Assembly: GCA_022340425.1 (NCBI GenBank) | Contig: JAJDNY010000162.1 | Span: 11,632 to 75,631 of the forward strand | From: Desulfobacteraceae bacterium | GTDB lineage: Bacteria > Desulfobacterota > Desulfobacteria > Desulfobacterales > JAABRJ01 | DNA length: 64,000 nt | Reading direction: 5' to 3' | Shown here: positions 14,523-58,728 of the stretch, one piece after another | How positions within the stretch are numbered: position 1 is the stretch's first letter | Layout of the letters: each line of letters opens with the position of its first letter | Made by a program: the position numbers and the translations under genes | The notes under the pieces: generated by a model | Seen by the model: the letters and a program-made list of their open reading frames with translations, nothing else | What the model was told of the DNA's origin: nothing | The model's database searches: none

Positions 14523-15695
14523 ATGCAAGTGATCAGGCCAAAGCTTTTCTTGTTTTTCTTTTTCCTTCTGCTTCTTGCTGTGACCCATCGCGCAGCAGCC
14601 AGCACCTTCCACGCAAACCAACGCACAACAACCGCTTTATCCAAATTACTACCACAACTACAGGTTGTGGACAGCCGGATATTCTGCCTCTGGCAAGAAC
14701 TGGATGCTGGATCGAAATGGCAAATCTGGACGGCCGTAATGAACACGGATGGCAGTGGCTGGACCGCAACAAAGAGAACGACCACCCCCTTCAGCAAGAG
14801 CTATCCTCAGTTCCAGGTGAATAACGGCAAGATTTACTTGATCTGGTCGGAGGCCGACGGTACCCATAACCAAATTTGGACCGCTGTGATGAACATAGAC
14901 GGCACAGGCTGGTCCGCCGTGAAGCGGACTTCGACAGCCGCCGACAAAGAAACACCTCAGCTTCAGGTTGTAAACAACAGCATCCATTTTGTCTGGGGGG
15001 AGTCAGATGGTTTTAACTCTCAGATCTGGACAGCCGTTATGAACACGGATGGCACCGGATGGTCTGCAAACCAAAGGACTTCCGCGGTGACTCCAAAACT
15101 TACCCCTCAATTTCATGTCGTTGAGAACAAGATCCATTACGTCTGGTCCGAATATCTTGGCGGGCATTTCCAGGTCATCACAGCCACCATGAATACTGAT
15201 GGCACCAAGTGGTCTGGAACCCAGCGGACGTTCACCAGTCGCGACAAGATGTTTCCCCAGTTGCAGGCATCAGAAGAAAAGATTTACTATGTGTGGCGAG
15301 AAAACGACGGAAGTCATCTGCAAGTGCGGGTAAGTTGGATGAATGTCGACGGCAGCGGTTGGTATAGTCCCGGACTGTCGGAAAGCCCATACGATAAAAC
15401 CCCCCCTCAGTTTCAAGTCGTGAACAACCGCGTCTATTGCGTCTTGAGCCAAGACGACGGCAGTTACGACCAAATCTGGACGGTCACGCTGGATTTGAGT
15501 CAAACAGATCTCAGGGCTGATGCAATCAAAAGGACGTCCAGCGAATTTTCTAAAGGCTATCCCCAGATGCAGGTTTTTAACCGCAGAATTTATTACATCT
15601 GGTGTGAGAATGACGGTTCCAACATCCAGATCTGGACGGCCGTAAGTTCAAATTTCGCTCCAGGCGCTGTTGACCTCTTGTTGCTGGATGATTGA
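14523..15695 (+). CDS. Secreted repeat protein, probable 7-bladed beta-propeller, function unknown
   Basis: 390 aa. Signal peptide KLFLFFFFLLLLAVTHRAAA|S, followed by seven ~50-aa repeats. The gene is visibly more AT-rich than its neighbours. Confidence 0.7.
   Translation: MQVIRPKLFLFFFFLLLLAVTHRAAASTFHANQRTTTALSKLLPQLQVVDSRIFCLWQELDAGSKWQIWTAVMNTDGSGWTATKRTTTPFSKSYPQFQVNNGKIYLIWSEADGTHNQIWTAVMNIDGTGWSAVKRTSTAADKETPQLQVVNNSIHFVWGESDGFNSQIWTAVMNTDGTGWSANQRTSAVTPKLTPQFHVVENKIHYVWSEYLGGHFQVITATMNTDGTKWSGTQRTFTSRDKMFPQLQASEEKIYYVWRENDGSHLQVRVSWMNVDGSGWYSPGLSESPYDKTPPQFQVVNNRVYCVLSQDDGSYDQIWTVTLDLSQTDLRADAIKRTSSEFSKGYPQMQVFNRRIYYIWCENDGSNIQIWTAVSSNFAPGAVDLLLLDD
14613..15656 (+). repeat. Seven tandem ~150-nt (about 50-aa) coding repeats
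   Basis: The unit consensus, read directly from the translation, is xxKRTsxxxxKxxPQ(L/F)QVvnnkIyyvWsExDGxxxQIWTAVMNtDGtGWS. Repeat 6 is the most diverged. Confidence 0.8.
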
Positions 15696-15915
15696 TGTCA
15701 TGTTCCAAAATATCGACTTTGGGAGTCTGCGGCTTCCCATTTAATTCTGGTTTCCCCTTTTTTCGATCAATGTCTTTTCCATGGCCTCCAGGTCCTGGCT
15801 GATCTCGGAGCAGCCCAACCGATATTTCCCGGCAAGGAGCCGACACCTTTTGGAGCAACCAATCCTGAACCCGTAATCACCGCCACGACCGCTTGGCGAA
15901 CTATAGGAGGAGTGC

Positions 15916-16260
15916 ATGGCCGCCAAATCCCACCTCACCGTTTTGTGGACCAACGACAACCCCGTCACCGCCGAAAAGATGGTCTTGATGTACACGGTCA
16001 ACGCCCTTGCCCACGGGTGGTGGGAAAAGGTGACCCTCGTTGTCTGGGGTGCCACCGCCACCCTGGTGTGCGACAACCCCGCTGTCCGGCAGAAGGTTCA
16101 GGAGGCGATCGCCGCCGGGGTGCACGTCACGGCCTGTAAGGCCTGCGCAGACCAGCTGGGCGTGTCCGAGACGTTGAAAGAGCTGGGGATCGAGGTGACC
16201 TACTGGGGCAAACCCCTGACCGAGATCCTGAAAAACGGTGAAGCGCTGCTGACGGTCTGA
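15916..16260 (+). CDS. DsrE/DsrF-like small sulfur-relay-fold protein
   Basis: 114 aa with an AGGAGG RBS. The overall pattern (VLWTNDNP...VTLVVWGA...TACKACADQLG) resembles DsrE-family proteins. This assignment rests on my recollection only. Confidence 0.45.
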   Translation: MAAKSHLTVLWTNDNPVTAEKMVLMYTVNALAHGWWEKVTLVVWGATATLVCDNPAVRQKVQEAIAAGVHVTACKACADQLGVSETLKELGIEVTYWGKPLTEILKNGEALLTV

Positions 16261-16498: not shown

Positions 16499-16596
16499 TG
16501 GCGGAAGTGCATGGGAATCGAACCCACCCGGGACGGTTTTAACGCCCCACACCGGATTTGAAGTCCGGGAGCCCCACCAGTGAGCTGCGCACTTCC
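16499..16596 (-). tRNA. selC: tRNA-Sec (anticodon UCA)
   Basis: The reverse strand reads GGAAGTGCGCAGCTCACTGGTGGGGCTCCCGGACTTCAAATCCGGTGTGGGGCGTTAAAACCGTCCCGGGTGGGTTCGATTCCCATGCACTTCCGCCA. It has an 8-bp acceptor stem, the anticodon loop CUUCAAA, a long extra arm, a GGTTCGATTCC T-arm and an encoded CCA. Confidence 0.9.
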
Positions 16597-23973: not shown

Positions 23974-24078
23974 GCGGCGCCGGGGGTTGATTCAGGGGTC
24001 CGCGGCACCGCCGGCAGTGAACGCTGAACGGCCGCAACGGTCCCGGCAATGGGGTTCACCCGACGGCCGGCCGGGGCC

Positions 24079-25182
24079 TTACTTGGGAAAGGGGCGGGCC
24101 CCGCTTTTGACCTGCATGACGAGATTCAGATCGTGCTCGGCGTTCGGATAGGAGCCGCCGGCGAGCTCGATGGCGCGTTCGTGGTGCATGATGGCCTGGT
24201 CGAACTTGCCTTCGTAGAACAGCACGTTTCCCATCCCGTTGACGGCGCCCGGGTCGTCTGGGTTGATTCCCAGCGCCGTCTCGAAATGCATCCGGGCCCG
24301 GCCCAGGTACCTCTTCCGCTGCTCCGGTGTCAGGAGATCGGTCCCGCCCGAACTGGCATACACGTTCTTCGCCGCATAGCCCGCCAGCGTGTGCAGGTAG
24401 ACGTCGTCGGGAAAGGACGCCAGCGCCTTGTCGATGTGGGTCAGATTGGCGTCGATAAGCGCGATCGCCCGGGCGCGGTCGGCGTGGGTCCTCCCGAAAA
24501 GCAGCTCAAGCCCCTCCTGCTGTTCGACGCGCAGCCGCTCACGGATATCCGCCAGGTACGCCCCCCCAGCCTCCGGCGCCGGTCCCGGCGCCACCTTCTC
24601 CACGACTTCAGGCAAGACCCGTTGCCCGTGAAAGGGACCCAACCACCACCAGCCCGCCGCGACGATGGCGATCACGACGGCGGCCGCCACCGCCAGCGCC
24701 ATCGGGCGGCGCGCCCAGCGCCGCTTGCCGTGCGACCCGACAACCTGGATCAGCCGCGCCACATCCGATTCCCAATCGTCGTCGCGCAGCTTCAGTGCGT
24801 TGATGCGCGCAAGCTGCGCGAGGCTGCCGGGCAGGTCTGCACCCCGCGGCATGCGGGCTTCGTCGATCAGAATCGGGATCACGCGGGCGGATCCTTTGAG
24901 TGCCAATTCCAGTTCCACGCGGTTCCAGTCCGCCGGGTCATCCAGACGGCGAGCGCCCGCTGCGTCACGGGCCGTGGCCCAGTTGGGGCCGATCAAGGCG
25001 AGGACGATGACATTTCCGGTCAGGCTTTCCTCGATGGCCCGGACCCAGTCCTCCCCGGCGCCGATGCTGTTCTTGTCCCGGAAGATCGCACTTTCGCCCA
25101 TGCGCCTGGCCAGCGATTCCCGCAGCCTACCGGCGACCATTTGGGAATCGCTCCGGCGGTAACTGATGAAAATCTTCGGCAT
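24079..25182 (-). CDS. TIR domain - single TM - TPR repeat protein
   Basis: The start is ATG 25182 (GGAGG 5 nt upstream), reading MPKIFISYRRSD... (TIR_2-type). The TM segment is RPMALAVAAAVVIAIVAAGWWWL. The C-terminus carries TPR-like repeats (GNVLFYEGKFDQAIMHHERAIEL). Confidence 0.75.
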   Translation of the reverse strand: MPKIFISYRRSDSQMVAGRLRESLARRMGESAIFRDKNSIGAGEDWVRAIEESLTGNVIVLALIGPNWATARDAAGARRLDDPADWNRVELELALKGSARVIPILIDEARMPRGADLPGSLAQLARINALKLRDDDWESDVARLIQVVGSHGKRRWARRPMALAVAAAVVIAIVAAGWWWLGPFHGQRVLPEVVEKVAPGPAPEAGGAYLADIRERLRVEQQEGLELLFGRTHADRARAIALIDANLTHIDKALASFPDDVYLHTLAGYAAKNVYASSGGTDLLTPEQRKRYLGRARMHFETALGINPDDPGAVNGMGNVLFYEGKFDQAIMHHERAIELAGGSYPNAEHDLNLVMQVKSGARPFPK

Positions 25183-25951
25183 CTTCGCCTCCGTGACATG
25201 GGCCTGCCCCGCGTCGGTATAGCCGATAAAATCAGTCAAGGGCGAGCGCCACTGCGGGATCTGTCCAATTGCCGCCCTTCCGGCACCCAGGCATGAGGCT
25301 GCGCAGGACGGCAGCAGAGAAAAAAAGTGGGGGTTTTTTCGGGCGTGCGGCTGTAAGGCGAAGGTGAGGCGATCGACGAAAGTGAGCCGCTGCTATTTTT
25401 CGATAGCAGATTCGATGGGGGATTGCAAAAGTTCCGCCGGAGCCATCACCCGCGGCGGAATTAACAAGCGGCACCAAGAGTTCAGCAGCAGCCAACAACA
25501 CACTTCAATTGAGTGAGAAAAAGCAAGCGATGGATTAGGCAGTCCTCTGGAACGAATGTTGTTCCTCTCAGAAAACCCCCAGCGGGGCGCCTACCCCAAG
25601 GAATTGCTTGCCATTGGCCTGGCAGATGATGATTTTCGACTTTGCAAGGGCGACTTTTCCGGGCTCTGAAAAATTCCAGCGAAAGAAAGAAGGACCGGCT
25701 CAGCGGCCGCCCCCCAAGCGAAAGGGAGGGCGAGTGGCGACAGTCAACCCGCAGATCGGTTTGCCCGTGAACACCCGCACGTCTGGCAAGAATTGCTTCC
25801 GGTGCGTTGCGCTTGACTTGTCGCGGGTGCTTGAATAAAAAAGGGATTATCTGGCCGTGAACTGGAATTTCCTTTTCGAGTTACCTGTAGGTGAGGACCA
25901 TTTCATTGAGGGCATCTCGTAACATTTCACGGCACGCCTCAAGATCCTTTC

Positions 25952-26200: not shown

Positions 26201-26229
26201 CGGCCCGCCCCGTGCGGCAGGAGGTTCCC

Positions 26230-29200
26230 ATGAAATGTCCCGGCTGCGCCCACGTCAATGCCCCCGATGCCCGGTTTTGCATCCAGTGCGGACAGATGCT
26301 GGGCGGCGTCTGCCCCGGCTGCGGGGCCGTCAATCCGGCCCAGGGCAGATTCTGCAGCCAGTGCGGCGCGGCGTTAACGGCCGGCCCCTTCGCCGATGCC
26401 GCGCCGCACCCGCGCGTTTGCCAGCCCGAGGAGAGACGCGCTTTACCCCGGCCCGCCGCCGGGGAGCGCAAGCACGTCACCGTGCTCTTCTCCGACATGT
26501 CCGGGTACACGGCGCTTACCCAGCGCCTGGACCCCGAGGAGGTCCGCGACCTCATGGCGCGCCTGACGCATGAGATCACCCGGGTGGTGGCCCGCTACGA
26601 GGGCTTTATCGAGAAGTTCGCAGGCGATGCCGTCATGGCGGTCTTCGGCGCCATCCAGGCCCATGAGGACGACGCGATCCGGGCCATCATCGCCGCCCGG
26701 GAGATCCACGAGCGCGTGGCGGCCTACAGCCGCAGGTACGAGGAAGAGATCGGGCAGCGGCTGGCGATGCACTCCGGGATCAACACCGGGCTCGTGGTCA
26801 CCGGCAGCGTGGACTTCGAGGCGGGCACCCACGGCATCGCCGGTGCGCCGCTCAACATCGCCTCCCGGCTGTGCGCCCTCGCCGGGCCGGGGGAGATCCT
26901 GGTGGGGGATGACACCTACCGCCACGCCCTGGGCTATTTCAATTTTCTGGCCCTGGACCCGGTGGCGGTCAAGGGCGTGAGCGTCCCGGTTCGGATCTAC
27001 CGGGTCGTATCCTTGATCGGCCGGCCCCAGAAGATCCACCGCTTCCACGGCCTGCGGGCCGATCTGATCGGCCGCAGCCCCGAGCTCACCACCTTGGCCG
27101 AGGCTTTGGACCGGGTGCGGGCCGGACACGGCCGCCTGGTGACAATCTGCGGCACCGCCGGCACCGGCAAAAGCCGCCTGGTGGAGGAATTCAGGGCCGT
27201 CGCCGGCCGCGCCAAGGTCAACTGGCGCGAGGGCCAGTGCTACCCCTATTCCCGCAACTTCACCTACTTTCCCTTCATCGATCTCTTGAACCGCACCCTG
27301 GGCATCGAGGAGGGCGACCCGGCGGAGCGTGTGCGGGCGAAGATCGAATCCGGCCTGGATTTCGTCGACCACCGGGAGGAGGTGGTGCCCTACGTCGGCC
27401 GCCTCTACAACTTCGACTACCCGCAGCTGACCAGAATCGGCCCGGAGACCTGGCGCCAGCGGCTGCAGAAGGCGATCCTGGACATCCTGACGGCCATGAG
27501 CCGGCGCGCGCCGACGATCATCTGCCTGGAGGATCTGCACTGGGCGGACCCGTCTTCGCTCGAGCTGATCCGCTTTCTCCTTTCGGACTTCCGCTACCCG
27601 GCCCTGGTGATCCTGGTCTACCGGCCCACTTTAAGCCTCTTGTCCCACCAGCAGACCGAAAACCTCGGCGAGGCTTACGTGGAGATCCGCCTGGAGGACC
27701 TATCGCCGGCGGAAACCGAGACGATGGTCGGCTCGCTTCTGAAGAGCCAGGCACTGCCCCCGGAGTTGAAGCGCTTCGTGCGCGACAAGGCCGGCGGCAA
27801 CCCCTTTTATCTTGAGGAAATCATCAACTCCCTGGTGGAATCCGGGACACTTTCGCCTGAAAAAGACGGCTGGGTGCTGCGCAAAACCATCGGCGAGGCC
27901 CGGATATCGGCCACCGTGCACGGGGTCATCGCCGCCCGGGTGGACCGCCTGGAGCCCGCGGTCAAATGCATCCTGCAGGAGGCGGCGGTGATCGGCCGCT
28001 CCTTTTCACACGACATCTTATGCCGCATCACCGATTGCGAGACCGACCTCTGGCACCACCTGGGCAGTCTGGAGACCCTTGACATCATCAAGGCCCGCAG
28101 CTTCAGGCCCTCGGTGGAATACATCTTCAAGCACGCCCTGACCCAGGAGGTGGTCTACGGGGGGCTTGTCACCGCCCGGCGCAAGGCGATCCACGAGCGG
28201 GTCGCCCGGGTCCTGGAGAAGCTCTACGCGGATCGGTTGCCCGAATCCTACGAGGCCCTGGCCTACCATTTTCAGCGCGGCACCTCCCCCGACAAGGCAG
28301 TGACCTACCTGGCAGCCTCCGGCGCCAAGAGCCTGGGGCGCTATGCCCTGGAGGAAGCCCACCGCTACTACCAGAGCGCCTACGACCGGATCGGGCAACA
28401 CTTCACTCCGCCGGAAAGCGACCGCCAAAAGATCGCGCTGATCAACCAGTGGGCGTTCGTCCACTACTACCGCGGGCGCTACGAGGAACTGCTGCAGCTT
28501 CTGAGCGACCACAGGCAGAGCGCCGATCGGCTCACCGACGACAAAAACCGCGGCATGTTTCACGCCTGGCTGGGCTGCGCCCTGTGGCACCGCGAACGGT
28601 TCCGGGAGGCCCACCAAACGCTTCTGACGGCCCTTTCCCTGGCCAAGGAAAAAGAGGACATGGCCTTCGTCGGCTATGCCAGCTGCTGGCTGGCCTGGGT
28701 CTGCAGCGAGCTGGGGCTGCTCGACGAAGCGCTGGCCCACGCCGCAAAGGCCCAGGAGATCCACCGCGCGGGGGAAAGCGACAACTTCATCTACTTCAGC
28801 TCCGTCGCTGCCACAGGCTACGCCCTCTGGCACAAGGGCGAGAAGGCGGAGACCGCGGCGACCGGCCATTCTTTGCTGCAATTTGGCCGCGAGCACGGGG
28901 ATTACCGCGCCAAGGGCATGGGCTACTGCTGTCTTGGCTGGAGCGCCCTGATGGGGGGCGACATCCCTGATGCCTGCGGGTTTTTCGAAAAAGCCGTCCT
29001 GGTCTCGGTCGACCCCTGGTATGCGATCTTCCCGAAGTTGGCCCTGGCCTACGGCCTGATGGTAAACGGGCGGGTCCACGAGGCCAAGCGCCAGATCGCC
29101 GAAGGCGAGGCCTTCTGCAAGGAGTTCGGGGCGGAGTTCGGGGGCCAGCCGGCGCGCTTTTTCAAGGGGGTGATCCTGGTGGGGGAAGGCAAAGTCGACG

Positions 29201-29610
29201 AGGGTCTCTCCCTGTTGGAGGAGTGCTGCCGCAACTGGCGCCAAAACGGCAGCAAGCTGCGCTTCGCCGCCTTCGGGGCGATGCTGGCGGGTATCTATTC
29301 AGAGCTCTACCGCAAGGCCCGCGCCGGGGGTCAGGCTGAGTTGGCGCTTTCCGCCCAAAAGCAGGCGGCGGCCTATTTTCAGGACGCCGTTGAATCGGCC
29401 GCGGAGATCGGCGCCAAGGGGACTCTTGCCCGGGCCTACCGCGCCTGGGGCCGCTTCTACCAGGAGCAGGGCGACAGCGACCAGGCCCGGGGGTGCTTTA
29501 CCGCGGCCGCGGCTTACTTCCGTTCCTGCGGGGTGGAAAACCTGGCGCAACAGGCCGAAGAAGATCAGCGGGCCCTTGAGGGAGAGCCGGGGGCGGGGCC
29601 CACGGGATAG
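26230..29610 (+). CDS. Double zinc-ribbon + class III adenylate/guanylate cyclase + AAA/STAND ATPase + TPR protein
   Basis: ATG 26230 follows AGGAGG. There are two CxxC-x(10-11)-CxxC ribbons. The cyclase core is HVTVLFSDMSGYT...EKFAGDAVMAVFG. Walker A is CGTAGTGKS (27151..27174). The C-terminal ~500 aa are TPR-like. Confidence 0.8.
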   Translation: MKCPGCAHVNAPDARFCIQCGQMLGGVCPGCGAVNPAQGRFCSQCGAALTAGPFADAAPHPRVCQPEERRALPRPAAGERKHVTVLFSDMSGYTALTQRLDPEEVRDLMARLTHEITRVVARYEGFIEKFAGDAVMAVFGAIQAHEDDAIRAIIAAREIHERVAAYSRRYEEEIGQRLAMHSGINTGLVVTGSVDFEAGTHGIAGAPLNIASRLCALAGPGEILVGDDTYRHALGYFNFLALDPVAVKGVSVPVRIYRVVSLIGRPQKIHRFHGLRADLIGRSPELTTLAEALDRVRAGHGRLVTICGTAGTGKSRLVEEFRAVAGRAKVNWREGQCYPYSRNFTYFPFIDLLNRTLGIEEGDPAERVRAKIESGLDFVDHREEVVPYVGRLYNFDYPQLTRIGPETWRQRLQKAILDILTAMSRRAPTIICLEDLHWADPSSLELIRFLLSDFRYPALVILVYRPTLSLLSHQQTENLGEAYVEIRLEDLSPAETETMVGSLLKSQALPPELKRFVRDKAGGNPFYLEEIINSLVESGTLSPEKDGWVLRKTIGEARISATVHGVIAARVDRLEPAVKCILQEAAVIGRSFSHDILCRITDCETDLWHHLGSLETLDIIKARSFRPSVEYIFKHALTQEVVYGGLVTARRKAIHERVARVLEKLYADRLPESYEALAYHFQRGTSPDKAVTYLAASGAKSLGRYALEEAHRYYQSAYDRIGQHFTPPESDRQKIALINQWAFVHYYRGRYEELLQLLSDHRQSADRLTDDKNRGMFHAWLGCALWHRERFREAHQTLLTALSLAKEKEDMAFVGYASCWLAWVCSELGLLDEALAHAAKAQEIHRAGESDNFIYFSSVAATGYALWHKGEKAETAATGHSLLQFGREHGDYRAKGMGYCCLGWSALMGGDIPDACGFFEKAVLVSVDPWYAIFPKLALAYGLMVNGRVHEAKRQIAEGEAFCKEFGAEFGGQPARFFKGVILVGEGKVDEGLSLLEECCRNWRQNGSKLRFAAFGAMLAGIYSELYRKARAGGQAELALSAQKQAAAYFQDAVESAAEIGAKGTLARAYRAWGRFYQEQGDSDQARGCFTAAAAYFRSCGVENLAQQAEEDQRALEGEPGAGPTG

Positions 29611-29838: not shown

Positions 29839-30369
29839 TTATCGATTACCGGGTAGCTTCAATCTTGGGGGCGATGGGGATGATGCGGGTTTGTTGGCCT
29901 GCAGGTCCCATCCCGCCTGGACGTTTCCGCCGCCAGTGCCGTCTGCATGTTTCTGTTTGACGTAGGTCTGCTCAATCTTGCCGTAGGTAAAAGAGACCGT
30001 CTCGGTGGGGTCCCTGCCGCCGTCCCCGCTGACGGTAACACCGCTGACGGTAACTTCGCTCATCTTGTATTCCATGAATTTCAGCCTGTCTCCGCCGGCC
30101 CGGCAGAGTTCCAGAACGACCTCCTTGATGTGCTCCCCCTTGGCGCATGCCACGAAAAGCAGGGGCGTTGCGGCATCCAGGGGCTTCACGATGGTAAGAT
30201 CCGCAAAATCCGCCCGCCGGCTCGACCCACCTCCGGAGCCAGCCTGGAATGCCCTGGCCTGCTGGTTGCACCCCCAAGAAAAAGAGAGGACCGCGATCCA
30301 CTCCCGATGCCTGTCATCGGTGCTTTCACCTTCGATCCCATCGATTCTCAAAAACACATTCGCCGGCAT
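29839..30369 (-). CDS. hcp: Hcp1-family tube protein (T6SS Hcp / phage tail-tube fold), orphan
   Basis: ATG 30369 follows AGGAGG. MPANVFLRIDGIEGESTDDRHREWIAVLSFSWG...TPLLFVACAKGEHI...GWDLQANK tracks Hcp1 sequences along the whole length. A 17-aa Pro/Ser-rich tail follows. Confidence 0.8.
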   Translation of the reverse strand: MPANVFLRIDGIEGESTDDRHREWIAVLSFSWGCNQQARAFQAGSGGGSSRRADFADLTIVKPLDAATPLLFVACAKGEHIKEVVLELCRAGGDRLKFMEYKMSEVTVSGVTVSGDGGRDPTETVSFTYGKIEQTYVKQKHADGTGGGNVQAGWDLQANKPASSPSPPRLKLPGNR

Positions 30370-30481
30370 GGAGGCCTCCTCTGTTTTTTGGGGATTGGGC
30401 TCGAGATTCGGGTCCGCGCGGCGCCTGAAACGCGCTTCGTTTCCTGCCGGGGGCGGCAACGACGAAAACGGTGTGCGTGAA

Positions 30482-30820
30482 TCACGGCGCATTTTCAGCC
30501 AGGATGCCGTCACCTTCGCCGATGGGCTCCTCGCCCGTCATGAGGTGAAACATATTGGGGTTCTGCTCATACCAGCCAAACTTTATCGGTTTTTCGTTGC
30601 GCAAGAGATCCACCATCGTTGCCAGTTGCTGATAGTCCATGTGCCCGTAGAAGCGCTGACCGAAGGTCGTAGGCGCCGACGCATTGGGAATTGGACCGTC
30701 TTTGTGGAATTTTAGCAAGGCATAAAACCCATCGCCCATCAGTTGAACACCGCCGTAGTAGTCTCCCTGACCGCCCACCGACACCTTGTAGCTGGTGATT
30801 TCATACCATTTCCACGCCAT
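30482..30820 (-). CDS. Hypothetical 112-aa protein (W/Y-rich, no Cys, no recognisable motif)
   Basis: ATG follows AGGAGG. It is co-oriented between the giant gene and hcp. Confidence 0.55.
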   Translation of the reverse strand: MAWKWYEITSYKVSVGGQGDYYGGVQLMGDGFYALLKFHKDGPIPNASAPTTFGQRFYGHMDYQQLATMVDLLRNEKPIKFGWYEQNPNMFHLMTGEEPIGEGDGILAENAP

Positions 30821-31005: not shown

Positions 31006-34000
31006 TCAGATCGCGTTTCGAATCATCGTCAAGGCCTCCTCGATCCTGGCATTGGGTGCCTCGTAGACTTCCAGGATGAAATCCAGGTGCTCCCCGATGG
31101 AGGCCATCTGCCGGGGGCTGGTGCCCCGCAGGCCGGCATCCCGGTACTTTTCCACGATGGCCTTGGCGTCCTCTTCCATCTTTTGGGCTGCCGCATTCGG
31201 GTTGGCCAGGAGCAGGACCAGCAGGCAATCCGCTTCGGCCACGGCACCCCAGAAATCGGGTTTTTCTTCATAGCGCTTGCGGGCGATGTCGATGGTTTGG
31301 CGGCATTCGGCTACCAATTCCGTCCTCCAGGTCGCCGCACGGGATTTGCGGATCCGCTCCAGAAGTACCCTGGCCAGGGCATAATTGGTGAAGGCGTAAG
31401 GGTCCTCGCGGTCCAGGTCATAGGCGCCGCGGTAAGTGTTCATCATGCTTTCAAGGGCCTTTTGCCTGTCTTCACGGGTTTCGAGAATATAGACCTGGCG
31501 TTTGAAGGCCCCGCCCAGGAGGTTCAGCCGCTCGATGCTCTTGCCGGTTTGCACCAGACGCTCCAGGGTGTCCAGCGCCTGGCCGACCTCTTCCAAAAGT
31601 TTCCGGTGCCTTTTTTCACGTTCCTCGCCGGCCTTCAGCCGTCGCAGATCCTGCCACGCCGCAGCGGCTGCACGCACCTTGAAATTGGCGGCCTGCTCCA
31701 CGGCCCGCATGGGGCAGTCGCCCCGGTCGGCCTTGATGGCCTTCTCCAGCCAATCCGCCGCCTTGCGGTAGGCACCGGTTTCGCCCCAGGCAAAACCCAG
31801 GGCGGCGGCCACATCGGCGCGCTTTGGCCATTTCTCGCGGTGGGATTCCGGGATCCGTTTGATGTATTTTCCGATCTGATCCCCCATGGCGGCGAGCGAC
31901 GATCCAACGGGGTCTTCGGCGCGCATTTGCATCCGGATCCACTGGGTGTGGTTGTCCAGGTCGGCAATCAGTTCGCGGGGGGTGAAATAGGCCCTTTTCT
32001 CCTTTTTCGTCTCCGGGGAGCCGTCTCCGTGCAGCCGGAACGCGGGGTCGCCGTAGCACTGATATGCGCCCCAGGTGTTGACGTTGGGAAAGCGCAGATG
32101 GATTTCCTGGCGCGCCGCCCTGACGGCCTCGCCGAAGGCCTCCCCGGAGAGCAGGCGGTGATAAAAGGTTTCCGCAAAGGCCTCGGCAGCGCCGTCATCC
32201 ACGGCCCAGCCGGCTGCCACCACCGCCTTGACCCCCATGTCGATGAACTGCATGGCCAAGTTGGCCGCCAGCAGGCCGTAGGCGACCTGGGACGGTGGGC
32301 CGGTCTTGCCCAGGTGGCAGCAATTGACGAAGACCAGTTCCGGCACCCAGCGCATCTGTTCCACATCCCCCGGCGTCAGGATGGTGTTCTTGCCGATGAC
32401 CATGCCGGAAATGCGCTTCGGGGCCTTTCCGACGTCCCTGCCTGACAGGCCCTTTGGGGCTTTCTCGACCTCTTCAAAATTCCCTTCGCTCACGGGGTCG
32501 TCGATCTCGAATGCGTGCACCCCGTGGCCGGCCAGATGCAGGATCCGCCAGGCGTCCTTGTGGAGCCCGGAGAGGATGGCGTCGGTTCGCTCGTCGATGC
32601 AGCCGACGGCTCGGAACCCGTTGGCGTTCAGCATGGCCAGCACTTTCTGGGCCTCGCTGCGCGCACCGGGCAGGTCGCCGAAGGCGTTCCAGCCCTCCAG
32701 GTCGGGGTTGCCGATCACCAGTGCGGTGGGGTCCACGGCGTGTGCCGGGTGGGGCCGGAATTTGGGGGTCTTGCGCTGACGGATCAGCCCCGAGGTCACC
32801 GCCGGCGGGCGTCCCGAATGGCTCCAGCGATCCTCCAGCAGTTCCCACGGGAAACGGGCGGACTCGTCATCCAGCAGCAATACCAGATCGTCCTGTTTGG
32901 GGGCCTGTTCCTTGAGTCGATTGGGCAGAAGCATCTCGAAGAGGGTCTTGGCCACCTCGGGATTGGCGCTGGCGGATCGCGAGGCCTGCAGGATGAAGCG
33001 ATCGGCCAGGCGCAACTGGCCGGTGGCAAGGGTTTCCTCGGCCCTGGCGCGGTTTGTGGTGGCAACGAAGCGCAGCAGATCGCTTTCTTTTTCACGGACG
33101 ATTTCCAGCCGCTGCCACCACCCCTCGGCCTCGCCGTATCGGATTCGGCGCCGCCCGCCCTGCCCCGCTTCGACCACCCGCGCGGGCCAGTCCAGCGCCA
33201 GGTTCAATTCGCCATCAGCAAGAGCCACTTCCAAGGCTTCGGCGGCGGTGATGGCGACATCTTCGAACAAGTCCAGAAATTCGATCCGATCGATCACCAC
33301 GCGGTCCTCCATGCGGGCATCGACCAGTTTGCGGTTGACCGCTACGGCCCCGCGCAGAATGGCGCAAACGGAATCCCGGATGCTCATGCCGCCGGCGCCC
33401 GTGGCCACCAGGAGGGAGGTGATCCTGACCGAGCGGGACCCCCCCATGGGCCCGAAGCGTTCATCCGGCCACTGCGAAACCTTCAGGGCATAGTCCAGCA
33501 GGGCGTCGTGCACGCAGGACGTGAGAAGGTTTGGTGAGATCTCGCCCACCTGCCCCAGCCCGACGACGATGGCGCCCCCCGGCTTGGCATCTTTTTTCCG
33601 GTTGAAGAACAGGGCGTGGGTGCCCAGCCGCCCGGGATAGATGCCCAGATCGCGCCGCTGGGTAAGCATCTTGTCCAGCCGGCAGTTCAAGGCCTCCTCC
33701 GCGCTGACGATGGTGTCCCCCCAGTAATGGCCCACCAGGACCGGGTGGGAGGCGTAGGCCAAATCACCATGCCGGACGCTGACCGTGATGGCGGGCACCC
33801 CCCTGCCTGCCGCGGCCGGGTCGAAAGGCCGGCTGGGGCCGAAGCCGAAGCTCCGCAGGCCCTCCTCGTCGGGAATGCCGTCGCTGGGGGGCACGCTGGG
33901 CATGCTAAAAAGGCCTTCCGGCCGCCGCCCCGCGCGAACCGCCAGCGGCGGCACCTGTGACAGGCGGCTGGTGGCCCCCGTCATCAGCAGCTCGAGATAC

Positions 34001-36537
34001 CCGGGAAATGCCCGTTTTTTGGCACACAGCTCGTCGTGGGCCGTGTCCTCCAGATACCAGACCGGCACATTGCCGATGGCGCCGGAGGCCCAGGTCACGG
34101 TGCCGTCGCCTTCCGAGGTGCCCTTGAAGTCCAGCCGTTTTCGTCCGGCCAGGCGGGGCTCCTCGTAGGGGACCAGCTCATAATCGGCCACCGTGGCCCT
34201 CTGGGAGCCCGCCACGTAAACGCTGAGCTTGGGGTCGGGAACGGTTTTGCCCAGGGCATCCCAGGTGGTTCTGGCCTTTGCCAGAACCGTTTCCCTGGCT
34301 GGTTTCCAGTGCGCATTCAATTCATCTTTCAATCCCCGCCACAGGCCCGGTTGGCTGAAATCCGGATCCCCCGCAGCGAAGGGCAGCAGTTCCAGGAGAC
34401 CGGGGAACTCCCGGACGATATTGATGATCGCGTCCATGTTGTTTTTCAGGTCCAGCAGGGCGAGCTTGGCCTGGGTGGGGTTGAAACCGGTCAACCAGCG
34501 CATGGCCTCGTAGGAGCCGTGGTTGGGGGTGCCCAGCATCATGAAGCGGCTGTTGGGCAGCGCCGCAATCCGCTGCCAGAGTTCGGCGCCGCGGCCGCCG
34601 TCGCCCATCATGGCGCGCACCACGAGCCCCCCCATGGAGTGGGCGATGATGTGCACCGGCTGCTTCATGCGCTCGGCCTGGGGCAGCCAGTCTGCCAATC
34701 GGTCGGCCAGTTTTTGGGCCGCATCGCGAACCGAGTCGCGCCAGTTGTAGGGGAATATCTCCACGCGGTGGCTGCGCGCCAAAAACTCCAGCAGGGGACC
34801 GTAGAACTGGTCCAGCAGATCGGTGGGATCGATCTGGGTTTGGGGTGCCTTGAGCCGTGCCAGCCCCCCCCACATCAACGCCCAGTAGTTCAGCCAGACC
34901 GGTTCGCCGTCCACGCTCAAGGCGCTGCCCATGGTCCCCGGCAGCACCACCGCCAGGGGCCTCGGCGTGCCGCTCGCCCGGCTGCGGCGCACGGCCTCGC
35001 GCCAGCGCGGCTCCTCGTGCTTGGCTTTCTCGATCGGTTGGAAACCGCCGTCGCCGGCATCGACACGGGTGAGGCCCGAGACCAGCCAGTTGATGCTTTT
35101 TTTGTTTTCGAAGTAGTTGAAATGGCACACCGCGGCGCCCTGGTCGAACTGAAAGCGGGCACCTTTTTCCGGGCGCCGGATACCGCCGAACATGGAACCG
35201 GTGTTGACCACCAGGTCATGCTCGGCGCCGTAGAACCAGTCGGTGGCCAACAACTTGATCTGCCCCCAGAGGGTTTCGCCCTCGATATCCCCGGAGATCA
35301 CCGAGAGATCGGCCCCCGTTTTCAGGTGCGGGTGGTGCAGCAACCGGGTGAGGGCCGAGCCCGGCATCATCGCCTCCAGACCCGGCAGAGTCCGGGGGTC
35401 GGTGCGTTCTTTCACCACCGCCAGCAGAAAATCCACCGCGTCCCCGAAAAACCCCTTGCCGCTGATGAAGTCCAGCACCGACAACCACCGGTCCAGCCGC
35501 CCCGAAGCCAGGGTCGTGCCGCGCGCCGGACAGGCCACCCGGACGAAGCGGGTCACCTGGAACTTTTTGAGATCCAGAAGGTCCCGCAACGCTTCCAGCA
35601 GGCTGCGGTCCTTCACATAGGCCTCGTCTCTGGCCTCCTTGGATTTGGAATCCAGGGGCTTCAAGCCAAGCTGCCGGGCCATGGTGCGGTCGGATTGGAA
35701 GAGTTCCGCATAGTCGCTTTTGAGGGGATCGTTTTGCGTGTCGCGCTGGCCAAGGCAGAGCAGCTCTCCCACCAGCCCGCCCCGGGAGTGGCTGACCAGG
35801 TGAAGCTGCGCACCCTCCGGCAGGAGCTTCGCCAGGATCTTCGCCAGTTCCAGTGCGTTTTCGATGGGGCTTTGGGTCAGCGAGCGGTGTTCGAAGGCAA
35901 AAACGCGCTCACCGTATGTCTCCCCCAGGACCTTGCGGGCCTGCTCCCCCTGGGCGTTTTGAGCTTCCCACAGCTTGCCGAAACTCCCCCGGGTGCTGGA
36001 GGCGGTGCCGTGGAGAAACACCAGGATCGGCCTCTGGCCGTCGCCAATGGGGTTTTCGGTACTTACCGGCAGAAGGGAAAAGTCCCCCGTCATCTGGCAG
36101 CGGTAGAGCCCGGGGGTGTTGCCGCCAAGCTGCTTGGCCTCGAACTTGTGGCTCAGGCCGTGGGCGGTTTTGCCGGCCAGATCGATGCCGAAAAAATCCA
36201 ACACCCGGATGCCCAGCTTCAACCAACCGCGTTCGCCCCGCTGCCGGATGCGGCTGGGCGCCCGTAGGGCGATCTCCCAGGCAGGCTCGCCGCCGCGGCC
36301 AAGAACCCGGGTGCCGTGCTCGGCGACGAGGTCGTCCGCCCGTGTCCACAGGACGAAGCCGTTGTCGAGCTCCACCCGGACCACTTCATCCGCCTGAACC
36401 ACCATTTCGGCGGCCCCGGCTTCCCGCAAGCCCCGGGGCAGCAGCCGCCGATTGGAGGAAATGGAGACCTCCCGGGTGACGGGACTTTCAGTGGCGCCTT
36501 CCAGGCCGGCAACATGAAATGATTTGGCTGTGGTCAT
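31006..36537 (-). CDS. Giant multidomain protein: two alpha/beta-hydrolase (lipase/esterase-like) modules + CHAT (caspase-fold) protease + TPR-like C-terminal region
   Basis: I prefer ATG 36537 (AGGAG upstream) to the track TTG at 36570. In track numbering: VSHSRGG with Ser262 (35785..35787), HDLVVN and VCHF; IIAHSMGG with Ser645 (34636..34638), EGDGTV and TAHDEL; CHAT HLAGHG with His1349 (32524..32526) and FVNCCHLG with Cys1418 (32317..32319). There is no signal peptide. Confidence 0.8.
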   Translation of the reverse strand: MTTAKSFHVAGLEGATESPVTREVSISSNRRLLPRGLREAGAAEMVVQADEVVRVELDNGFVLWTRADDLVAEHGTRVLGRGGEPAWEIALRAPSRIRQRGERGWLKLGIRVLDFFGIDLAGKTAHGLSHKFEAKQLGGNTPGLYRCQMTGDFSLLPVSTENPIGDGQRPILVFLHGTASSTRGSFGKLWEAQNAQGEQARKVLGETYGERVFAFEHRSLTQSPIENALELAKILAKLLPEGAQLHLVSHSRGGLVGELLCLGQRDTQNDPLKSDYAELFQSDRTMARQLGLKPLDSKSKEARDEAYVKDRSLLEALRDLLDLKKFQVTRFVRVACPARGTTLASGRLDRWLSVLDFISGKGFFGDAVDFLLAVVKERTDPRTLPGLEAMMPGSALTRLLHHPHLKTGADLSVISGDIEGETLWGQIKLLATDWFYGAEHDLVVNTGSMFGGIRRPEKGARFQFDQGAAVCHFNYFENKKSINWLVSGLTRVDAGDGGFQPIEKAKHEEPRWREAVRRSRASGTPRPLAVVLPGTMGSALSVDGEPVWLNYWALMWGGLARLKAPQTQIDPTDLLDQFYGPLLEFLARSHRVEIFPYNWRDSVRDAAQKLADRLADWLPQAERMKQPVHIIAHSMGGLVVRAMMGDGGRGAELWQRIAALPNSRFMMLGTPNHGSYEAMRWLTGFNPTQAKLALLDLKNNMDAIINIVREFPGLLELLPFAAGDPDFSQPGLWRGLKDELNAHWKPARETVLAKARTTWDALGKTVPDPKLSVYVAGSQRATVADYELVPYEEPRLAGRKRLDFKGTSEGDGTVTWASGAIGNVPVWYLEDTAHDELCAKKRAFPGYLELLMTGATSRLSQVPPLAVRAGRRPEGLFSMPSVPPSDGIPDEEGLRSFGFGPSRPFDPAAAGRGVPAITVSVRHGDLAYASHPVLVGHYWGDTIVSAEEALNCRLDKMLTQRRDLGIYPGRLGTHALFFNRKKDAKPGGAIVVGLGQVGEISPNLLTSCVHDALLDYALKVSQWPDERFGPMGGSRSVRITSLLVATGAGGMSIRDSVCAILRGAVAVNRKLVDARMEDRVVIDRIEFLDLFEDVAITAAEALEVALADGELNLALDWPARVVEAGQGGRRRIRYGEAEGWWQRLEIVREKESDLLRFVATTNRARAEETLATGQLRLADRFILQASRSASANPEVAKTLFEMLLPNRLKEQAPKQDDLVLLLDDESARFPWELLEDRWSHSGRPPAVTSGLIRQRKTPKFRPHPAHAVDPTALVIGNPDLEGWNAFGDLPGARSEAQKVLAMLNANGFRAVGCIDERTDAILSGLHKDAWRILHLAGHGVHAFEIDDPVSEGNFEEVEKAPKGLSGRDVGKAPKRISGMVIGKNTILTPGDVEQMRWVPELVFVNCCHLGKTGPPSQVAYGLLAANLAMQFIDMGVKAVVAAGWAVDDGAAEAFAETFYHRLLSGEAFGEAVRAARQEIHLRFPNVNTWGAYQCYGDPAFRLHGDGSPETKKEKRAYFTPRELIADLDNHTQWIRMQMRAEDPVGSSLAAMGDQIGKYIKRIPESHREKWPKRADVAAALGFAWGETGAYRKAADWLEKAIKADRGDCPMRAVEQAANFKVRAAAAAWQDLRRLKAGEEREKRHRKLLEEVGQALDTLERLVQTGKSIERLNLLGGAFKRQVYILETREDRQKALESMMNTYRGAYDLDREDPYAFTNYALARVLLERIRKSRAATWRTELVAECRQTIDIARKRYEEKPDFWGAVAEADCLLVLLLANPNAAAQKMEEDAKAIVEKYRDAGLRGTSPRQMASIGEHLDFILEVYEAPNARIEEALTMIRNAI

Positions 36538-36652
36538 GGCGCACGCTCCTGTTTTTTCATGGGTTTTCAAGAGGGATACCCGACCCGTGCCGGCCGGGAG
36601 GCCTTCCGCCCCGCCGGCGGCATAAAGACATTGGGGGCGGGATCATCGATGG

Positions 36653-38938
36653 CTAAATCACCTTTTGAGCCGTCCATCCGAACGGATGGTTGGACCACCA
36701 GGTGATCCCCGAGATGCGCGACAGTGTCCAGGTATGCACATAGCCCACGAATCTCTGATTATTGGAGGCGGAGAAAGCAATTCTTATCTCGACCTTGTAA
36801 TCGGTGCGCTTGGATCCGGCTCCCAACTGGTTGGGATCGAAACCACCCAACGTCCCCGAAAAGGGGTAGCTCTTGTTATCACTGCCGACGTAAGTCCCCG
36901 AAATGCTCCAAAGCGGCGCTGCATAGGGCGCGTTTGTCACCACGCGATAGTTCCAGATCCGGGTGACTTTCAGGGTTCCCCGCCAGCCGTCGTGGTCCAT
37001 GGACCAGTCCCCTCTCAGCCACTCGGCATTGCTCGCGACATCAGCGGTCGGATCCCCGAACAGGTTGTACATCACGGTGTTGTCCAAGTGGGCGCTGGAG
37101 GTCCCGTGGTTGAGCACCATCTTGGTCTTGGCATAGCGGATAATGGCGGCCGGTGTCTGACATTTGCCGGTCATCACGGCATCGAACATGTACTTGGCGA
37201 AATCGTTGTTGGGGTACGTCCAGGAGTTGCGCGATGAAGCGAAAACCGAAACCGCCTTGCGATTGCGGATGAATGATTCCGTGATCGTCTCCAGGCTGTT
37301 GTCATCCACCCAGCCGTTTTGGCAGCAGACACTCAAGACAAACGGAGGGTGCGCGCCATTGGTGAGGGCGGCAACATCGGTGCCGTTGAGACCGTTGCTG
37401 GAAGACCACGCGGTCTTCGATCCGTGACCACGGTAGAGGGCGATCACAACGCCGCTGTTCATGGTCGCCACGACATCGCTCTTGGAGGTGTTCTTGGCGT
37501 AACGTTTGATGGCGGCGTAACGTTTGTTAATGTTGTTGTAAATTTGGTCACAGGTGTTTTCGTATGTGGCGGATTGGTATGCGCAGAGCATGACCCTGTT
37601 TTGCCAGTCGCCCCAGTCGCCCTTTCTATATCCCCCGTAGCGGACGAGGTGCTCGCAGACGCTTTTCAGTTGGGCGGCGTTGGATGTCGGAATGCGGGAA
37701 ACCGTCAGTTCAGGGGCCAGATCTCCGGAGAGGTCGGCGTAAAAATGATCCGAGGCGTAGGTATTCCCGCCCCGGTTGTAGATGTGGATGGGGATGACGT
37801 CGGTGTCCCCCGCCAACACCACAAAACGCGGGGGCACCCGCCAGTTGGCCGTTGCCCAGGCAATGAACGCCTTGATGGACCCCTTCAAACTGGTGCTCGG
37901 AAACTCCCGCTGAATGTCATCGGTCAGCGCCACCTTGGCGTAGTATGGCCACCCCGTCTTTGCCGTCAGCAGCGGTTCGACCGCGGTTTCGAGTGCCCGG
38001 GTCGTTACGATCACGTACTCTGCTATGAGGCCGGCCACCTTCAGCTTGGGAAGCGGAAGTATCGGCACGCCCACAGGCAGCGCGACTGTGGCGAGTGGCG
38101 CGGCAGCTATGGCCGTTAGGGTTCCGGTCGGGTCGGAAACCTCGTCTTCGGTCTCCTCGAGAAGAGAGATCCCCCGGCGTCTGGCGGATGCGGGATCCGC
38201 TTCAGCCTCCAGCTCTTCGATGAACTCCCGGTCCAGCCCCTGGAAATCCTCCACCCGCGAAGAATAGTCCGTCTGTTCGTCCAGCAGGTCCAACCCCAGG
38301 ATCAGGTCCGCTTCCGGCATTTCACGGGGCTTTCGCCCCGGCTCCCGGTCGGCCCCGGGCGGGGTTTGATACGTTACTTCAAGAACCAGCGACTGGACAA
38401 TCTCCATTTTCCGTGACACCGGCCGGTACTGGCCCAAATAGATCAGGATGTGGGCTACTTTCACCCCCGCTATGGTCTTGAGGCCCAGAAAGTCGAAGTC
38501 GCGACCCGGATAAGGGTCGTCCGACTCGTAGATCGCCGGGTCGGGTTCATAGACCTCGCGAAACTCCTCCTCCGTGAATTGCTTGGGTGCCGGTGCTACC
38601 CGCAATTCATGGTCGATGGTGATGGATGATTTCTCGGCCACACGCACCGCGACATCCTCCACGTCCATGGGGACCGCCACGAAGATACCGGCCTTGGGTA
38701 CGGCGGGCGCACCCTCGGTTTCGACCTGGGTAGTATCGGGGATTTCAATTTGCTGAAATTCCGCCACAGCCCCTTCCCAGGCGCCTGATACGGAATATCG
38801 AACGGTTACGGTTGTTTTCTCGCCCGCATCGCGCATGTCCCGGGTGACCATCTGTTTGGCGGACTTGCTGACCTCAACTTTGGGGGGCGCATCGCTTTCG
38901 GCTGCGTCCTGAAAGCCGATCCATTTCTTTTCGCTCAT
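36653..38938 (-). CDS. Peptidase C25 (gingipain-like) family cysteine protease, apparently cytoplasmic
   Basis: ATG follows AGGAGG. VLAGDTDVIPIH...YASDHFYADL, YRGHGS with His505 (37424..37426) and LSVCCQNGW with Cys539 (37322..37324). The layout is an N-terminal propeptide-like region, an acidic linker and an unassigned ~120-aa C-terminal beta-rich domain. The N-terminus is hydrophilic. Confidence 0.75.
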   Translation of the reverse strand: MSEKKWIGFQDAAESDAPPKVEVSKSAKQMVTRDMRDAGEKTTVTVRYSVSGAWEGAVAEFQQIEIPDTTQVETEGAPAVPKAGIFVAVPMDVEDVAVRVAEKSSITIDHELRVAPAPKQFTEEEFREVYEPDPAIYESDDPYPGRDFDFLGLKTIAGVKVAHILIYLGQYRPVSRKMEIVQSLVLEVTYQTPPGADREPGRKPREMPEADLILGLDLLDEQTDYSSRVEDFQGLDREFIEELEAEADPASARRRGISLLEETEDEVSDPTGTLTAIAAAPLATVALPVGVPILPLPKLKVAGLIAEYVIVTTRALETAVEPLLTAKTGWPYYAKVALTDDIQREFPSTSLKGSIKAFIAWATANWRVPPRFVVLAGDTDVIPIHIYNRGGNTYASDHFYADLSGDLAPELTVSRIPTSNAAQLKSVCEHLVRYGGYRKGDWGDWQNRVMLCAYQSATYENTCDQIYNNINKRYAAIKRYAKNTSKSDVVATMNSGVVIALYRGHGSKTAWSSSNGLNGTDVAALTNGAHPPFVLSVCCQNGWVDDNSLETITESFIRNRKAVSVFASSRNSWTYPNNDFAKYMFDAVMTGKCQTPAAIIRYAKTKMVLNHGTSSAHLDNTVMYNLFGDPTADVASNAEWLRGDWSMDHDGWRGTLKVTRIWNYRVVTNAPYAAPLWSISGTYVGSDNKSYPFSGTLGGFDPNQLGAGSKRTDYKVEIRIAFSASNNQRFVGYVHTWTLSRISGITWWSNHPFGWTAQKVI

Positions 38939-48902: not shown

Positions 48903-49062
48903 AAATTGATGAAGCGGTAAAAAGTCAAAAACCTGACGGTTTCGTAGAAAGGTCAAGTTACGGCGCGCAAATCTCGAGGAGTGAGGCCTACTTATGTACG
49001 CCGCAGCGACTTCGAGATGCAGCGCAACGCAGAAATTGGCCTTTCTACAGAACCGTCAAAAT
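48903..49062 (-). repeat. Dispersed ~160-bp imperfect-palindrome element, copy A (inverted relative to copy B)
   Basis: The reverse complement shares long identical blocks with 58569..58728, for example GGCCAATTTCTGCGTTGCGCTGCATCTCGAAGTCGCTGCG and CCTCACTCCTCGAGATTTGCGCGCCGTAACTTGACCTTT. Confidence 0.75.
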
Positions 49063-58568: not shown

Positions 58569-58728
58569 CTTTGACAGTTCCGTAAAATGGCCAATTTCTG
58601 CGTTGCGCTGCATCTCGAAGTCGCTGCGACGTACAATCGTACGCCTCACTCCTCGAGATTTGCGCGCCGTAACTTGACCTTTTTACGAAACTGTCTGGAT
58701 TTTGACTTTTTACTGGTTCATCAACTTT
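58569..58728 (+). repeat. Dispersed ~160-bp imperfect-palindrome element, copy B
   Basis: See copy A. The arms are inverted copies of each other: the left arm is GACAGTTCCGTAAAATGGCCAA and the reverse complement of the right arm is GACAGTTTCGTAAAAAGGTCAA. Confidence 0.75.

Follow-up and report, generated by a model that had tools for sequence, protein, structure and literature searches.

Bacterial TIR systems characterised in the literature cited here sense infection in the cytoplasm, and an experimental survey concluded that the membrane-receptor features of Toll-like receptors seem to be absent from them (PMC11350192). We analyzed a gene located at 24079-25182, on the minus strand, of a 64,000-nucleotide stretch of the Desulfobacteraceae bacterium contig JAJDNY010000162.1 (the whole stretch is hereafter called the window). 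The predicted protein of 367 aa combines an N-terminal TIR domain, a single transmembrane (TM) helix and a C-terminal domain (CTD) made of TPR-like helices. The protein belongs to a family that awaits characterisation, is shaped like a receptor and appears to act alone, a partnership with the nearby cyclase gene being unsupported; its function is predicted from sequence.

The closest described systems were considered one after the other. Single-gene TIR and TIR+TPR proteins defend E. coli, in dependence on the TIR catalytic residue; these antiphage proteins and E. coli TIR-II have TIR and TPR in one polypeptide or operon, and the window protein is likened to them by architecture (PMC11350192). 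They are cytosolic, often with an ATPase. In the window protein the TM helix separates TPR from TIR, so that its TPR region would not be able to see cytoplasmic phage proteins. Thoeris (ThsB; type VIII ThsI with a TPR sensor) also associates a TIR with a TPR-S-like scaffold, whereas in the window protein TIR and TPR are predicted on opposite sides of the membrane and there is no separate effector gene. Thoeris membership was rejected: the hidden Markov model matches are only weak, partial and N-terminal (PADLOC ThsB, 29 bits over residues 3-72 only; NCBIfam ThcB4, 32 bits for a cutoff of 220), no effector gene is present, and no conserved operon was seen in 10 genomic contexts. Pycsar membership was rejected as well, on the lack of a cNMP_binding match and on the absence of the cyclase-STAND gene from three sister contigs (L011, L012 and L013).

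Among membrane-associated systems, the amoeba protein TirC is a TIR of the NADase class in which a TM tether restrains toxic oligomerisation (PMC13142454). It differs by its N-terminal TM helix, the lack of an ectodomain, a TIR of the TIR-STING-like clade and its eukaryotic origin. Zorya is a precedent for infection sensed at the envelope and relayed to the cytoplasm (PMC11890865), but ZorAB is formed of unrelated proteins, a MotAB-like motor complex with separate effectors. SARM1 and TIR-1 share with the window protein the FISYRR box, the BB-loop Asp/Gly, the Trp, the catalytic Glu and an insertion before the WxxxE helix. However, identity with SARM1 is only about 22%, and SARM1 is a soluble, mitochondria-associated ARM-SAM-TIR octamer regulated by nicotinamide mononucleotide (NMN)/NAD at its ARM domain, while the TIR of the window protein is N-terminal, tethered by a TM helix to a TPR region predicted to be extracytoplasmic, with a predicted NADase activity. 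Toll-like receptors follow the logic proposed for the window protein: a sensor built of repeats lies outside, a TIR that acts on clustering lies inside, and one TM helix connects them. They are type I proteins with an N-terminal leucine-rich repeat (LRR) ectodomain and a C-terminal scaffold-type TIR; the window protein would be type II, with an N-terminal SARM1-like TIR of the enzymatic class and a TPR ectodomain. Since the order is reversed, TPR stands in the place of LRR and the nearest TIR is that of SARM1, membership in this class was rejected and the resemblance is an analogy. No membrane-anchored bacterial TIR of the TIR-TM-TPR kind was found described in the literature searched; architecture surveys outside it may list TIR-TM fusions.

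TIR domain, membrane helix and C-terminal domain

The layout of the gene is as follows, each line ending with the evidence used:

24079..25182, minus strand: TIR-TM-TPR gene, 367 aa, stop codon included (open reading frame (ORF) list; orthologues of 44-89% identity begin at the same MPKIF; G+C at third codon positions (GC3) 0.83)
25188..25192, minus strand: Shine-Dalgarno-like GGAGG, 5 nt 5' of the ATG at 25182 (read from sequence)
24733..25182, minus strand: SARM1-like TIR domain, predicted cytoplasmic, residues 1-150 (Pfam TIR_2, PDB profile match, Foldseek)
24913..24915, minus strand: codon of Glu90, putative catalytic glutamate of the WxxxE motif (aligned with SARM1 E642, invariant)
24631..24705, minus strand: single transmembrane helix, residues ~160-184 (PMALAVAAAVVIAIVAAGWWWLGPF) (Kyte-Doolittle and Hessa-scale scans)
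24559..24630, minus strand: variable Pro/Ala/Glu-rich linker, residues 185-208 (predicted local distance difference test (pLDDT) <50; mean orthologue identity 19%)
24103..24558, minus strand: seven-helix TPR-like domain (CTD), predicted extracytoplasmic, residues 209-360 (pLDDT >90, Foldseek, invariant residues)

An overlapping 415-aa ORF on the plus strand (24049-25296) was discarded as an antisense artefact of high G+C. An earlier note, written from the sequence alone, had read a TIR domain, one TM helix and a TPR-like C-terminal region in this gene, and all three are recovered by Pfam, the hydropathy scans and AlphaFold2 (AF2)/Foldseek. The AF2 model has a mean pLDDT of 83, rising above 90 in the CTD, and displays the TIR fold, a helix at 159-180, a disordered segment at 181-208 and seven helices over 209-360.

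The TIR domain was identified by Pfam TIR_2 (PF13676) at residues 4-145 (E=3e-15, 57.2 bits for a cutoff of 28), with full coverage of the profile (positions 1-122 of 122). In the AF2 model its strands (3-7, 58-64, 100-106 and 130-132) alternate with helices in a flavodoxin-like beta/alpha fold, and Foldseek superposes it on SARM1 TIR crystal structures with a TM-score of 0.82-0.87 on the target and an rmsd (root mean square deviation) of 2.1-3.1 A. When residues 1-155 were compared by phmmer to all PDB sequences, the matches were solely SARM1 and C. elegans TIR-1 (best E=7e-5), and no solved bacterial TIR was matched. A profile built on 36 orthologues (alignment A1, 44-89% identity) raises the match to the SARM1 TIR to E=4e-12. 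The 145-residue phmmer alignment to SARM1, in which residue pairs were counted as printed against native SARM1 numbering, contains the common FISYRR box and pairs D36 with D594, G43 with G601, W86 with W638 and E90 with E642; these four residues are invariant in 36 of 36 orthologues. SARM1 E596 is paired with N38, and this position is not kept as Glu. The glutamate which had been proposed to occupy the position of the NADase catalytic residue is thus E90, in ...DWNRVELELAL. Because D36, G43, W86 and E90 are both aligned and invariant, the TIR carries a complete recognisable catalytic set of the NADase class. The protein is a member of the TIR superfamily with sequence hallmarks of this class, and its SARM1-like TIR domain probably cleaves NAD. 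A preprint places SARM1 itself inside a mainly bacterial TIR clade (PMC13142454).

The TM helix is the lone hydrophobic segment of the protein, with a Kyte-Doolittle mean of 2.3 over residues 161-179. On the Hessa scale (Hessa et al. 2005), residues 161-183 are the only segment of the protein with a negative additive dG (about -1.1 kcal/mol), the next best elsewhere reaching +6.9. In orthologues the hydrophobicity of the helix is kept and its sequence is not (42% identity); the linker which follows is hypervariable (19%). In the 15 residues that precede the helix there are 5 K/R and acidic residues are absent; in the 15 that follow it, 2 K/R are balanced by 2 acidic residues. The chain starts directly with strand A of the TIR fold and so has no signal peptide. 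A single spanning helix must put the TIR and the CTD on opposite sides of the membrane, and we infer an N-in/C-out, type II arrangement, with the TIR in the cytoplasm and the CTD outside; all indicators agree. The TIR(in)-TM-TPR(out) topology put forward in the earlier note is therefore supported by the single helix, the K/R count (5 vs 2) and the lack of a signal peptide, and also by the arrangement seen in the whole clade (see below).

The ratio of non-synonymous to synonymous substitution rates (dN/dS) was calculated against three orthologues: the TIR gives 0.11-0.30, the CTD 0.26-0.33 and the TM helix plus linker 0.46-0.99. Judged from these ratios, both TIR and CTD are under purifying selection, and the pattern is characteristic of two functional domains with an anchor between them.

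The TPR nature of the CTD is supported by several searches. Pfam TPR_1 matches residues 315-341 (28.4 bits in the full protein, 31.3 bits with the CTD alone, cutoff 27.8), TPR_12 gives 36.6 bits for a cutoff of 30.1, and weaker TPR families also match. According to Foldseek the CTD resembles three-repeat peptide-binding TPR modules (CTPR3, Sgt2/SGT, Hop TPR1), and the PDB profile search of the orthologue family retrieves consensus TPR proteins. By sequence, canonical TPR is limited to the last ~1.5 repeats. Invariant CTD residues in the 36 orthologues include G268, Y269, K272, N273, R289, Y292, N315, G316, G318, N319, Y345 and D351. Conservation of this degree points to a ligand or partner that is itself conserved, more than to a phage protein that evolves fast.

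The wider TIR clade and the mobility of the CTD

To place the protein in its family the best 120 homologues were listed, of which 90 possess a recognisable Glu motif. Among these listed relatives, 79 of 90 (~88%) have a TM helix 30-130 residues past the motif, and in 68 of these 79 more K/R are found on the N side of the helix. The tails are diverse: the CTD described here (53 proteins), VWA_2, WD40 or PD40 propellers, a VHL-like beta domain, pentapeptide repeats, unannotated domains of 50-300 residues, or almost none (P0058, P0066). Several tails hold 4 or 6 cysteines, compared to 0-2 in the TIR, or paired-Cys repeats (L017), which suggests, as far as composition can tell, periplasmic disulfide-bonded domains. 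Since the TM helix is found across the clade and the tails are swapped, TIR(in)-TM-X(out) appears as a family trait with an exchanged outer module. The family has a patchy distribution over distant phyla and archaea.

The CTD is itself a mobile module. A phmmer search of the CTD against 1.84 billion representatives is dominated by generic multi-TPR proteins, leaving ~20-25 single-stretch family clusters that could be used. In genome and metagenome searches it was observed in several architectures: after the present SARM1-like TIR plus TM helix; after two other TIR clades plus TM (the types '...SEWVKNEA' and 'FLSHASED...'); after one TM helix whose cytoplasmic N-tail is charged; after a pair of TM helices, in bacteria and archaeal metagenome-assembled genomes (MAGs), including an anchor with a +3 loop; and as a tandem pair behind a signal-peptide-like N-terminus and Trypsin_2. 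The CTD is predicted outside the cell in most of its architectures. For the 2TM-CTD relatives the positive-inside counts conflict, some of them favouring a cytoplasmic CTD (L024, with 6 K/R after TM2); this group is ambiguous in topology and was left out as evidence either way.

Profile comparisons suggest that the CTD is distantly related to Pfam TPR-S (PF20308). One relative, L023, which is 42% identical to the window CTD over 187 aa, reaches 32.6 bits for a cutoff of 27.6. Three others (L024, L022 and P0147) stand just below the cutoff with 27.1-27.5 bits, and altogether 13 of 25 members of the CTD family match TPR-S at E<0.1, on the non-canonical first helices. The CTD of the window protein has no TPR-S match even at E<=10. 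A similarity between this CTD and the TPR-S region of a neighbouring CHAT protein was also considered and rejected (hhalign probability 1%). Burroughs and Aravind reportedly predicted in 2020 that TPR-S is a TPR scaffold recognising NAD+-derived signals and linked to TIR signalling. A preprint cites the TPR-S prediction for the TPR of the Thoeris effector ThsI, which responds to cyclic ADP-ribose (bioRxiv 2025.12.03.692087).

Genomic neighbourhood

The distribution of neighbouring genes was examined in sister Desulfobacterales/Desulfobacteraceae MAG contigs (L011, the same contig as L001; L012; L013) and in more distant orthologues. Amino-acid identity between the window and the sister contigs is 92-96% for alaS, 96-97% for recA and 86-89% for the TIR-TM-TPR gene, and nucleotide identity is ~90% through recA-alaS-TIR. 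LigT-recA-alaS are convergent with the TIR gene in L011 and L012; in L013, a 4.1-kb contig, only the 3' part of alaS is left beside it. Synteny stops at the start of the TIR gene, and the upstream slot differs by genome. In the window it contains a cyclase-STAND gene, an orphan Hcp and a giant CHAT/TPR-S protein. In L011 it contains HicAB and ParE/Phd modules, a TPR_12 protein and a TIR fragment. In L012 (2040-5116, plus strand) it contains a TIR-NACHT-FGE-sulfatase gene, apparently split by a frameshift (780 aa + 280 aa), the TIR of which is 40% identical to the window TIR. In the window lineage the gene is located at the edge of this variable island.

The divergent cyclase-STAND gene across a ~1-kb low-GC spacer, reported in the earlier note, is indeed present: the spacer measures ~1.03 kb, with a GC of 0.56 compared to 0.68 in the flanks. 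No Rfam match and no sigma-70-like promoter were detected in it; a regulatory RNA or promoter was rejected on these empty scans, terminator-like matches being at chance level. The cyclase-STAND gene (26212-29610, plus strand, start at 26212 or 26230) encodes a double zinc ribbon, a class III cyclase, an AAA_16 STAND NTPase and TPR. Its protein matches Pycsar cyclase (PycC) models (E=2.5e-16) and, partially, a TOMM kinase/cyclase fusion model (267 bits for a cutoff of 706). Because it is absent from L011, L012 and L013, we consider it as island cargo. Two minus-strand genes stand between it and the CHAT gene: the orphan Hcp (29839-30513; T6SS_HCP, E=1e-41) and a 112-aa ORF without Pfam match (30482-30820). 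The CHAT protein itself (31006-36570, minus strand, 1854 aa) has three DUF7379 stretches, an LCAT/alpha-beta-hydrolase-like region, CHAT and a C-terminal Pfam TPR-S; a 761-aa ORF (36653-38938, minus strand) lies upstream of its gene.

In distant orthologues the neighbours are of several kinds: transposases, integrases, toxin-antitoxin pairs, STAND NTPases, a TIR-WD40 giant, a calpain-like peptidase with a Tle1-like lipase, and flagellar or plain metabolic genes. An all-against-all BLAST of the neighbours in ten contexts found no family shared beyond close relatives. As there is no conserved neighbour the gene must be self-sufficient, and it behaves as a stand-alone unit, often but not always in variable regions rich in conflict genes. 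The earlier note had named homologues scattered without conserved neighbours as an outcome that would contradict its reading, and this scatter is what we observed; it argues against a multi-gene system and leaves the receptor-like architecture untouched.

A second TIR gene is found within 6 kb in 4 of the 10 group-A contexts, encoding respectively a TIR-NACHT-FGE-sulfatase, a TIR-WD40, a 304-aa TIR protein and a TIR fragment. None was found by a crude motif scan of the 64-kb window. Closely related loci are present in three Smithella/Smithellaceae MAGs and one contig binned as Dehalococcoidales (L025, L027, L028, L029). There, a same-strand cluster (~57-8531 in L025) comprises a Ser/Thr kinase with a cNMP-binding (cyclic nucleotide) domain, a 206-aa ORF, a TIR-patatin, a metallophosphatase, CHAT, the group-B TIR-TM-CTD and then a PBP1-like gene. 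This synteny may reflect only the close relatedness of the loci. A CHAT protein is thus found directly upstream of the group-B TIR-TM-CTD gene in Smithella loci too.

Elsewhere in the window, a tRNA-Sec (16503-16596, minus strand; RF01852, 76.5 bits) is the lone Rfam match above gathering score. A dispersed element of ~135-155 bp, 84-90% identical between copies, occurs at 58570-58703 and 48907-49060 in opposite orientations, and again at 9710-9863 of L001, in the recA-LigT intergenic region of a sister MAG. The bin 15001-16000 has the lowest GC of the window (0.505), and a 390-aa ORF with a signal-peptide-like N-terminus and a GC3 of 0.59 is located at 14523-15695 (plus strand); from its composition, the low-GC stretch around this ORF may be foreign DNA.

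Proposed mechanism and competing explanations

The reading that we favour, with middling confidence, is that the gene encodes a stand-alone single-pass membrane sensor-effector, with a SARM1-like NAD+-cleaving TIR inside and a TPR-like module in the periplasm. SARM1 and bacterial TIRs are known to form a composite TIR-TIR active site. At rest, the TIR domains would be held apart by their tethering to the membrane and by a low local density. An envelope event would then bind or cluster the outer TPR modules, or a cue would drive their self-association; the trigger might be a component of a phage or competitor, or a ligand derived from the envelope. The tethered TIR domains would meet, form the composite active site and cleave NAD+. 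This would either deplete NAD+, with growth arrest or abortive infection as the result, or yield a signal of ADP-ribose (ADPR) type. A broader and more tentative proposal is that the family is a bacterial counterpart of transmembrane TIR receptors, in which exchangeable outer domains would read an extracytoplasmic cue and cluster a SARM1-like TIR enzyme. For the TPR-S-like module, this cue might be a component of the envelope or of a phage, or it might consist of NAD-derived nucleotides released by infected kin.

Several observations weigh against a sensor-effector of this kind. A conserved Glu need not mean NADase activity (PMC7075850). The CTD, conserved and apparently under purifying selection, is unlike a receptor engaged in an arms race with phage proteins, and an intracellular NAD-signal sensor of TPR-S type does not easily fit with an outside CTD. 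In about half of the contexts the neighbours are ordinary metabolic or flagellar genes, and the gene is vertically inherited beside alaS in four related MAGs. No homologue was found in the phage collection, and the matches in the plasmid collection cover the TIR only, not the full protein.

Among the alternatives, the one suggested by the locus itself, i.e. that the protein is an effector or partner of the divergent cyclase/STAND gene, in a Pycsar-like or STAND-controlled system where a cyclic nucleotide or the STAND hub activates the TIR, is now highly improbable. The two genes are adjacent and divergent across ~1 kb, the cyclase domain fits the PycC models, systems made of a cyclase plus a TIR effector exist (Pycsar; Pucsar preprint), and one distant orthologue has a cyclase-TPR gene ~6 kb away. 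However, Pfam finds in the TIR protein neither a cNMP-binding domain nor any other receiver domain of the cytoplasmic side, the slot of the sister genomes holds toxin-antitoxin modules and a TPR gene, or the TIR-NACHT-FGE-sulfatase gene, in place of the cyclase-STAND gene, and a cyclase next to the gene is kept in no orthologue context. The synteny comparison, made with the three sister contigs and seven further contexts, largely refutes this partnership, and with it the functional link entertained in the earlier note. A relay in the manner of Toll-like receptors and their adaptors, where the TIR would be a non-catalytic or heterotypic adaptor recruiting or activating soluble TIR proteins, seems unlikely. 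It would explain the other TIR genes of 4 of the 10 group-A contexts and the TIR-patatin of the Smithella group-B loci, and the fold generally acts through TIR-TIR assembly (PMC7075850). These nearby TIR genes are equally explained by co-location in defence islands, they are lacking in 6 of the 10 contexts and from the motif scan of the window, and a SARM1-type catalytic set as strictly conserved as this one speaks for a protein that is itself catalytic.

The other explanations concern the role of the outer part. The TM helix could serve mainly as a tether for safety, and the outer TPR, instead of sensing a ligand, could be used for anchoring or oligomerisation, activation resulting from proteolytic release, membrane damage or a change of expression. 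TirC without its TM helix is toxic, and its authors propose proteolytic release (PMC13142454); some TIR-TM relatives have almost no tail (P0058, P0066), the CTD is conserved rather than diversifying, and TPR modules are generally known to self-associate often. Set against this, 16 or more invariant surface-type residues of the CTD (K272, N273, N315, N319...) are kept in three TIR clades of bacteria and archaea, and the repeated exchange of folded outer domains (VWA, beta-propellers, VHL-like) looks like sensor swapping, so that we hold a tether to be rather unlikely. We see a smaller chance that the CTD genuinely senses NAD-derived nucleotides as a TPR-S domain, in a cytoplasmic feed-forward loop with a helix that does not span the membrane at rest, or on the outside, where it would respond to signal set free by lysed or infected neighbours. 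The TPR-S matches of 13 of 25 family members, led by L023, point in this direction, as do the link of TPR-S to TIR signalling (reportedly made by Burroughs and Aravind in 2020, and cited for ThsI in bioRxiv 2025.12.03.692087) and the positive-inside count of some 2TM-CTD proteins such as L024, which favours a cytoplasmic CTD. But the window protein lacks any TPR-S match, its comparison to the CHAT TPR-S region gives the 1% mentioned above, the hydrophobicity of the helix matches that of genuine TM segments, and the architectures with signal peptide plus trypsin, one TM and two TM (+3 loop) put the CTD outside. It is about equally doubtful that the protein has a non-immune housekeeping role in the envelope (assembly or stress signalling), with a TIR modulating NAD metabolism or scaffolding. 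Such a role would fit with the stable vertical inheritance beside alaS and recA in the four related MAGs, the purifying selection on both domains, the metabolic or flagellar character of several contexts, and the two cases where group-B/group-C genes adjoin PBP1-type and D-Ala-D-Ala ligase genes. A patchy distribution without fixed neighbourhood is however typical of accessory genes, the position at the edge of a variable island points the same way, and the bacterial TIR proteins characterised in the cited literature act in defence or virulence.

If the broader proposal of a family of transmembrane TIR receptors is true, outside-in TIR signalling, and possibly cell-to-cell immune signalling, would exist in prokaryotes, and bacterial relatives of the SARM1 TIR would be membrane receptors. 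The protein would then offer a single-gene model for the way in which clustering across a membrane switches on a TIR NADase, and would throw light on the bacterial lineage thought to be the source of the SARM1 TIR. Should it prove to be inactive, or a housekeeping factor of the envelope, it would still narrow the role of the TPR-S-like scaffold.

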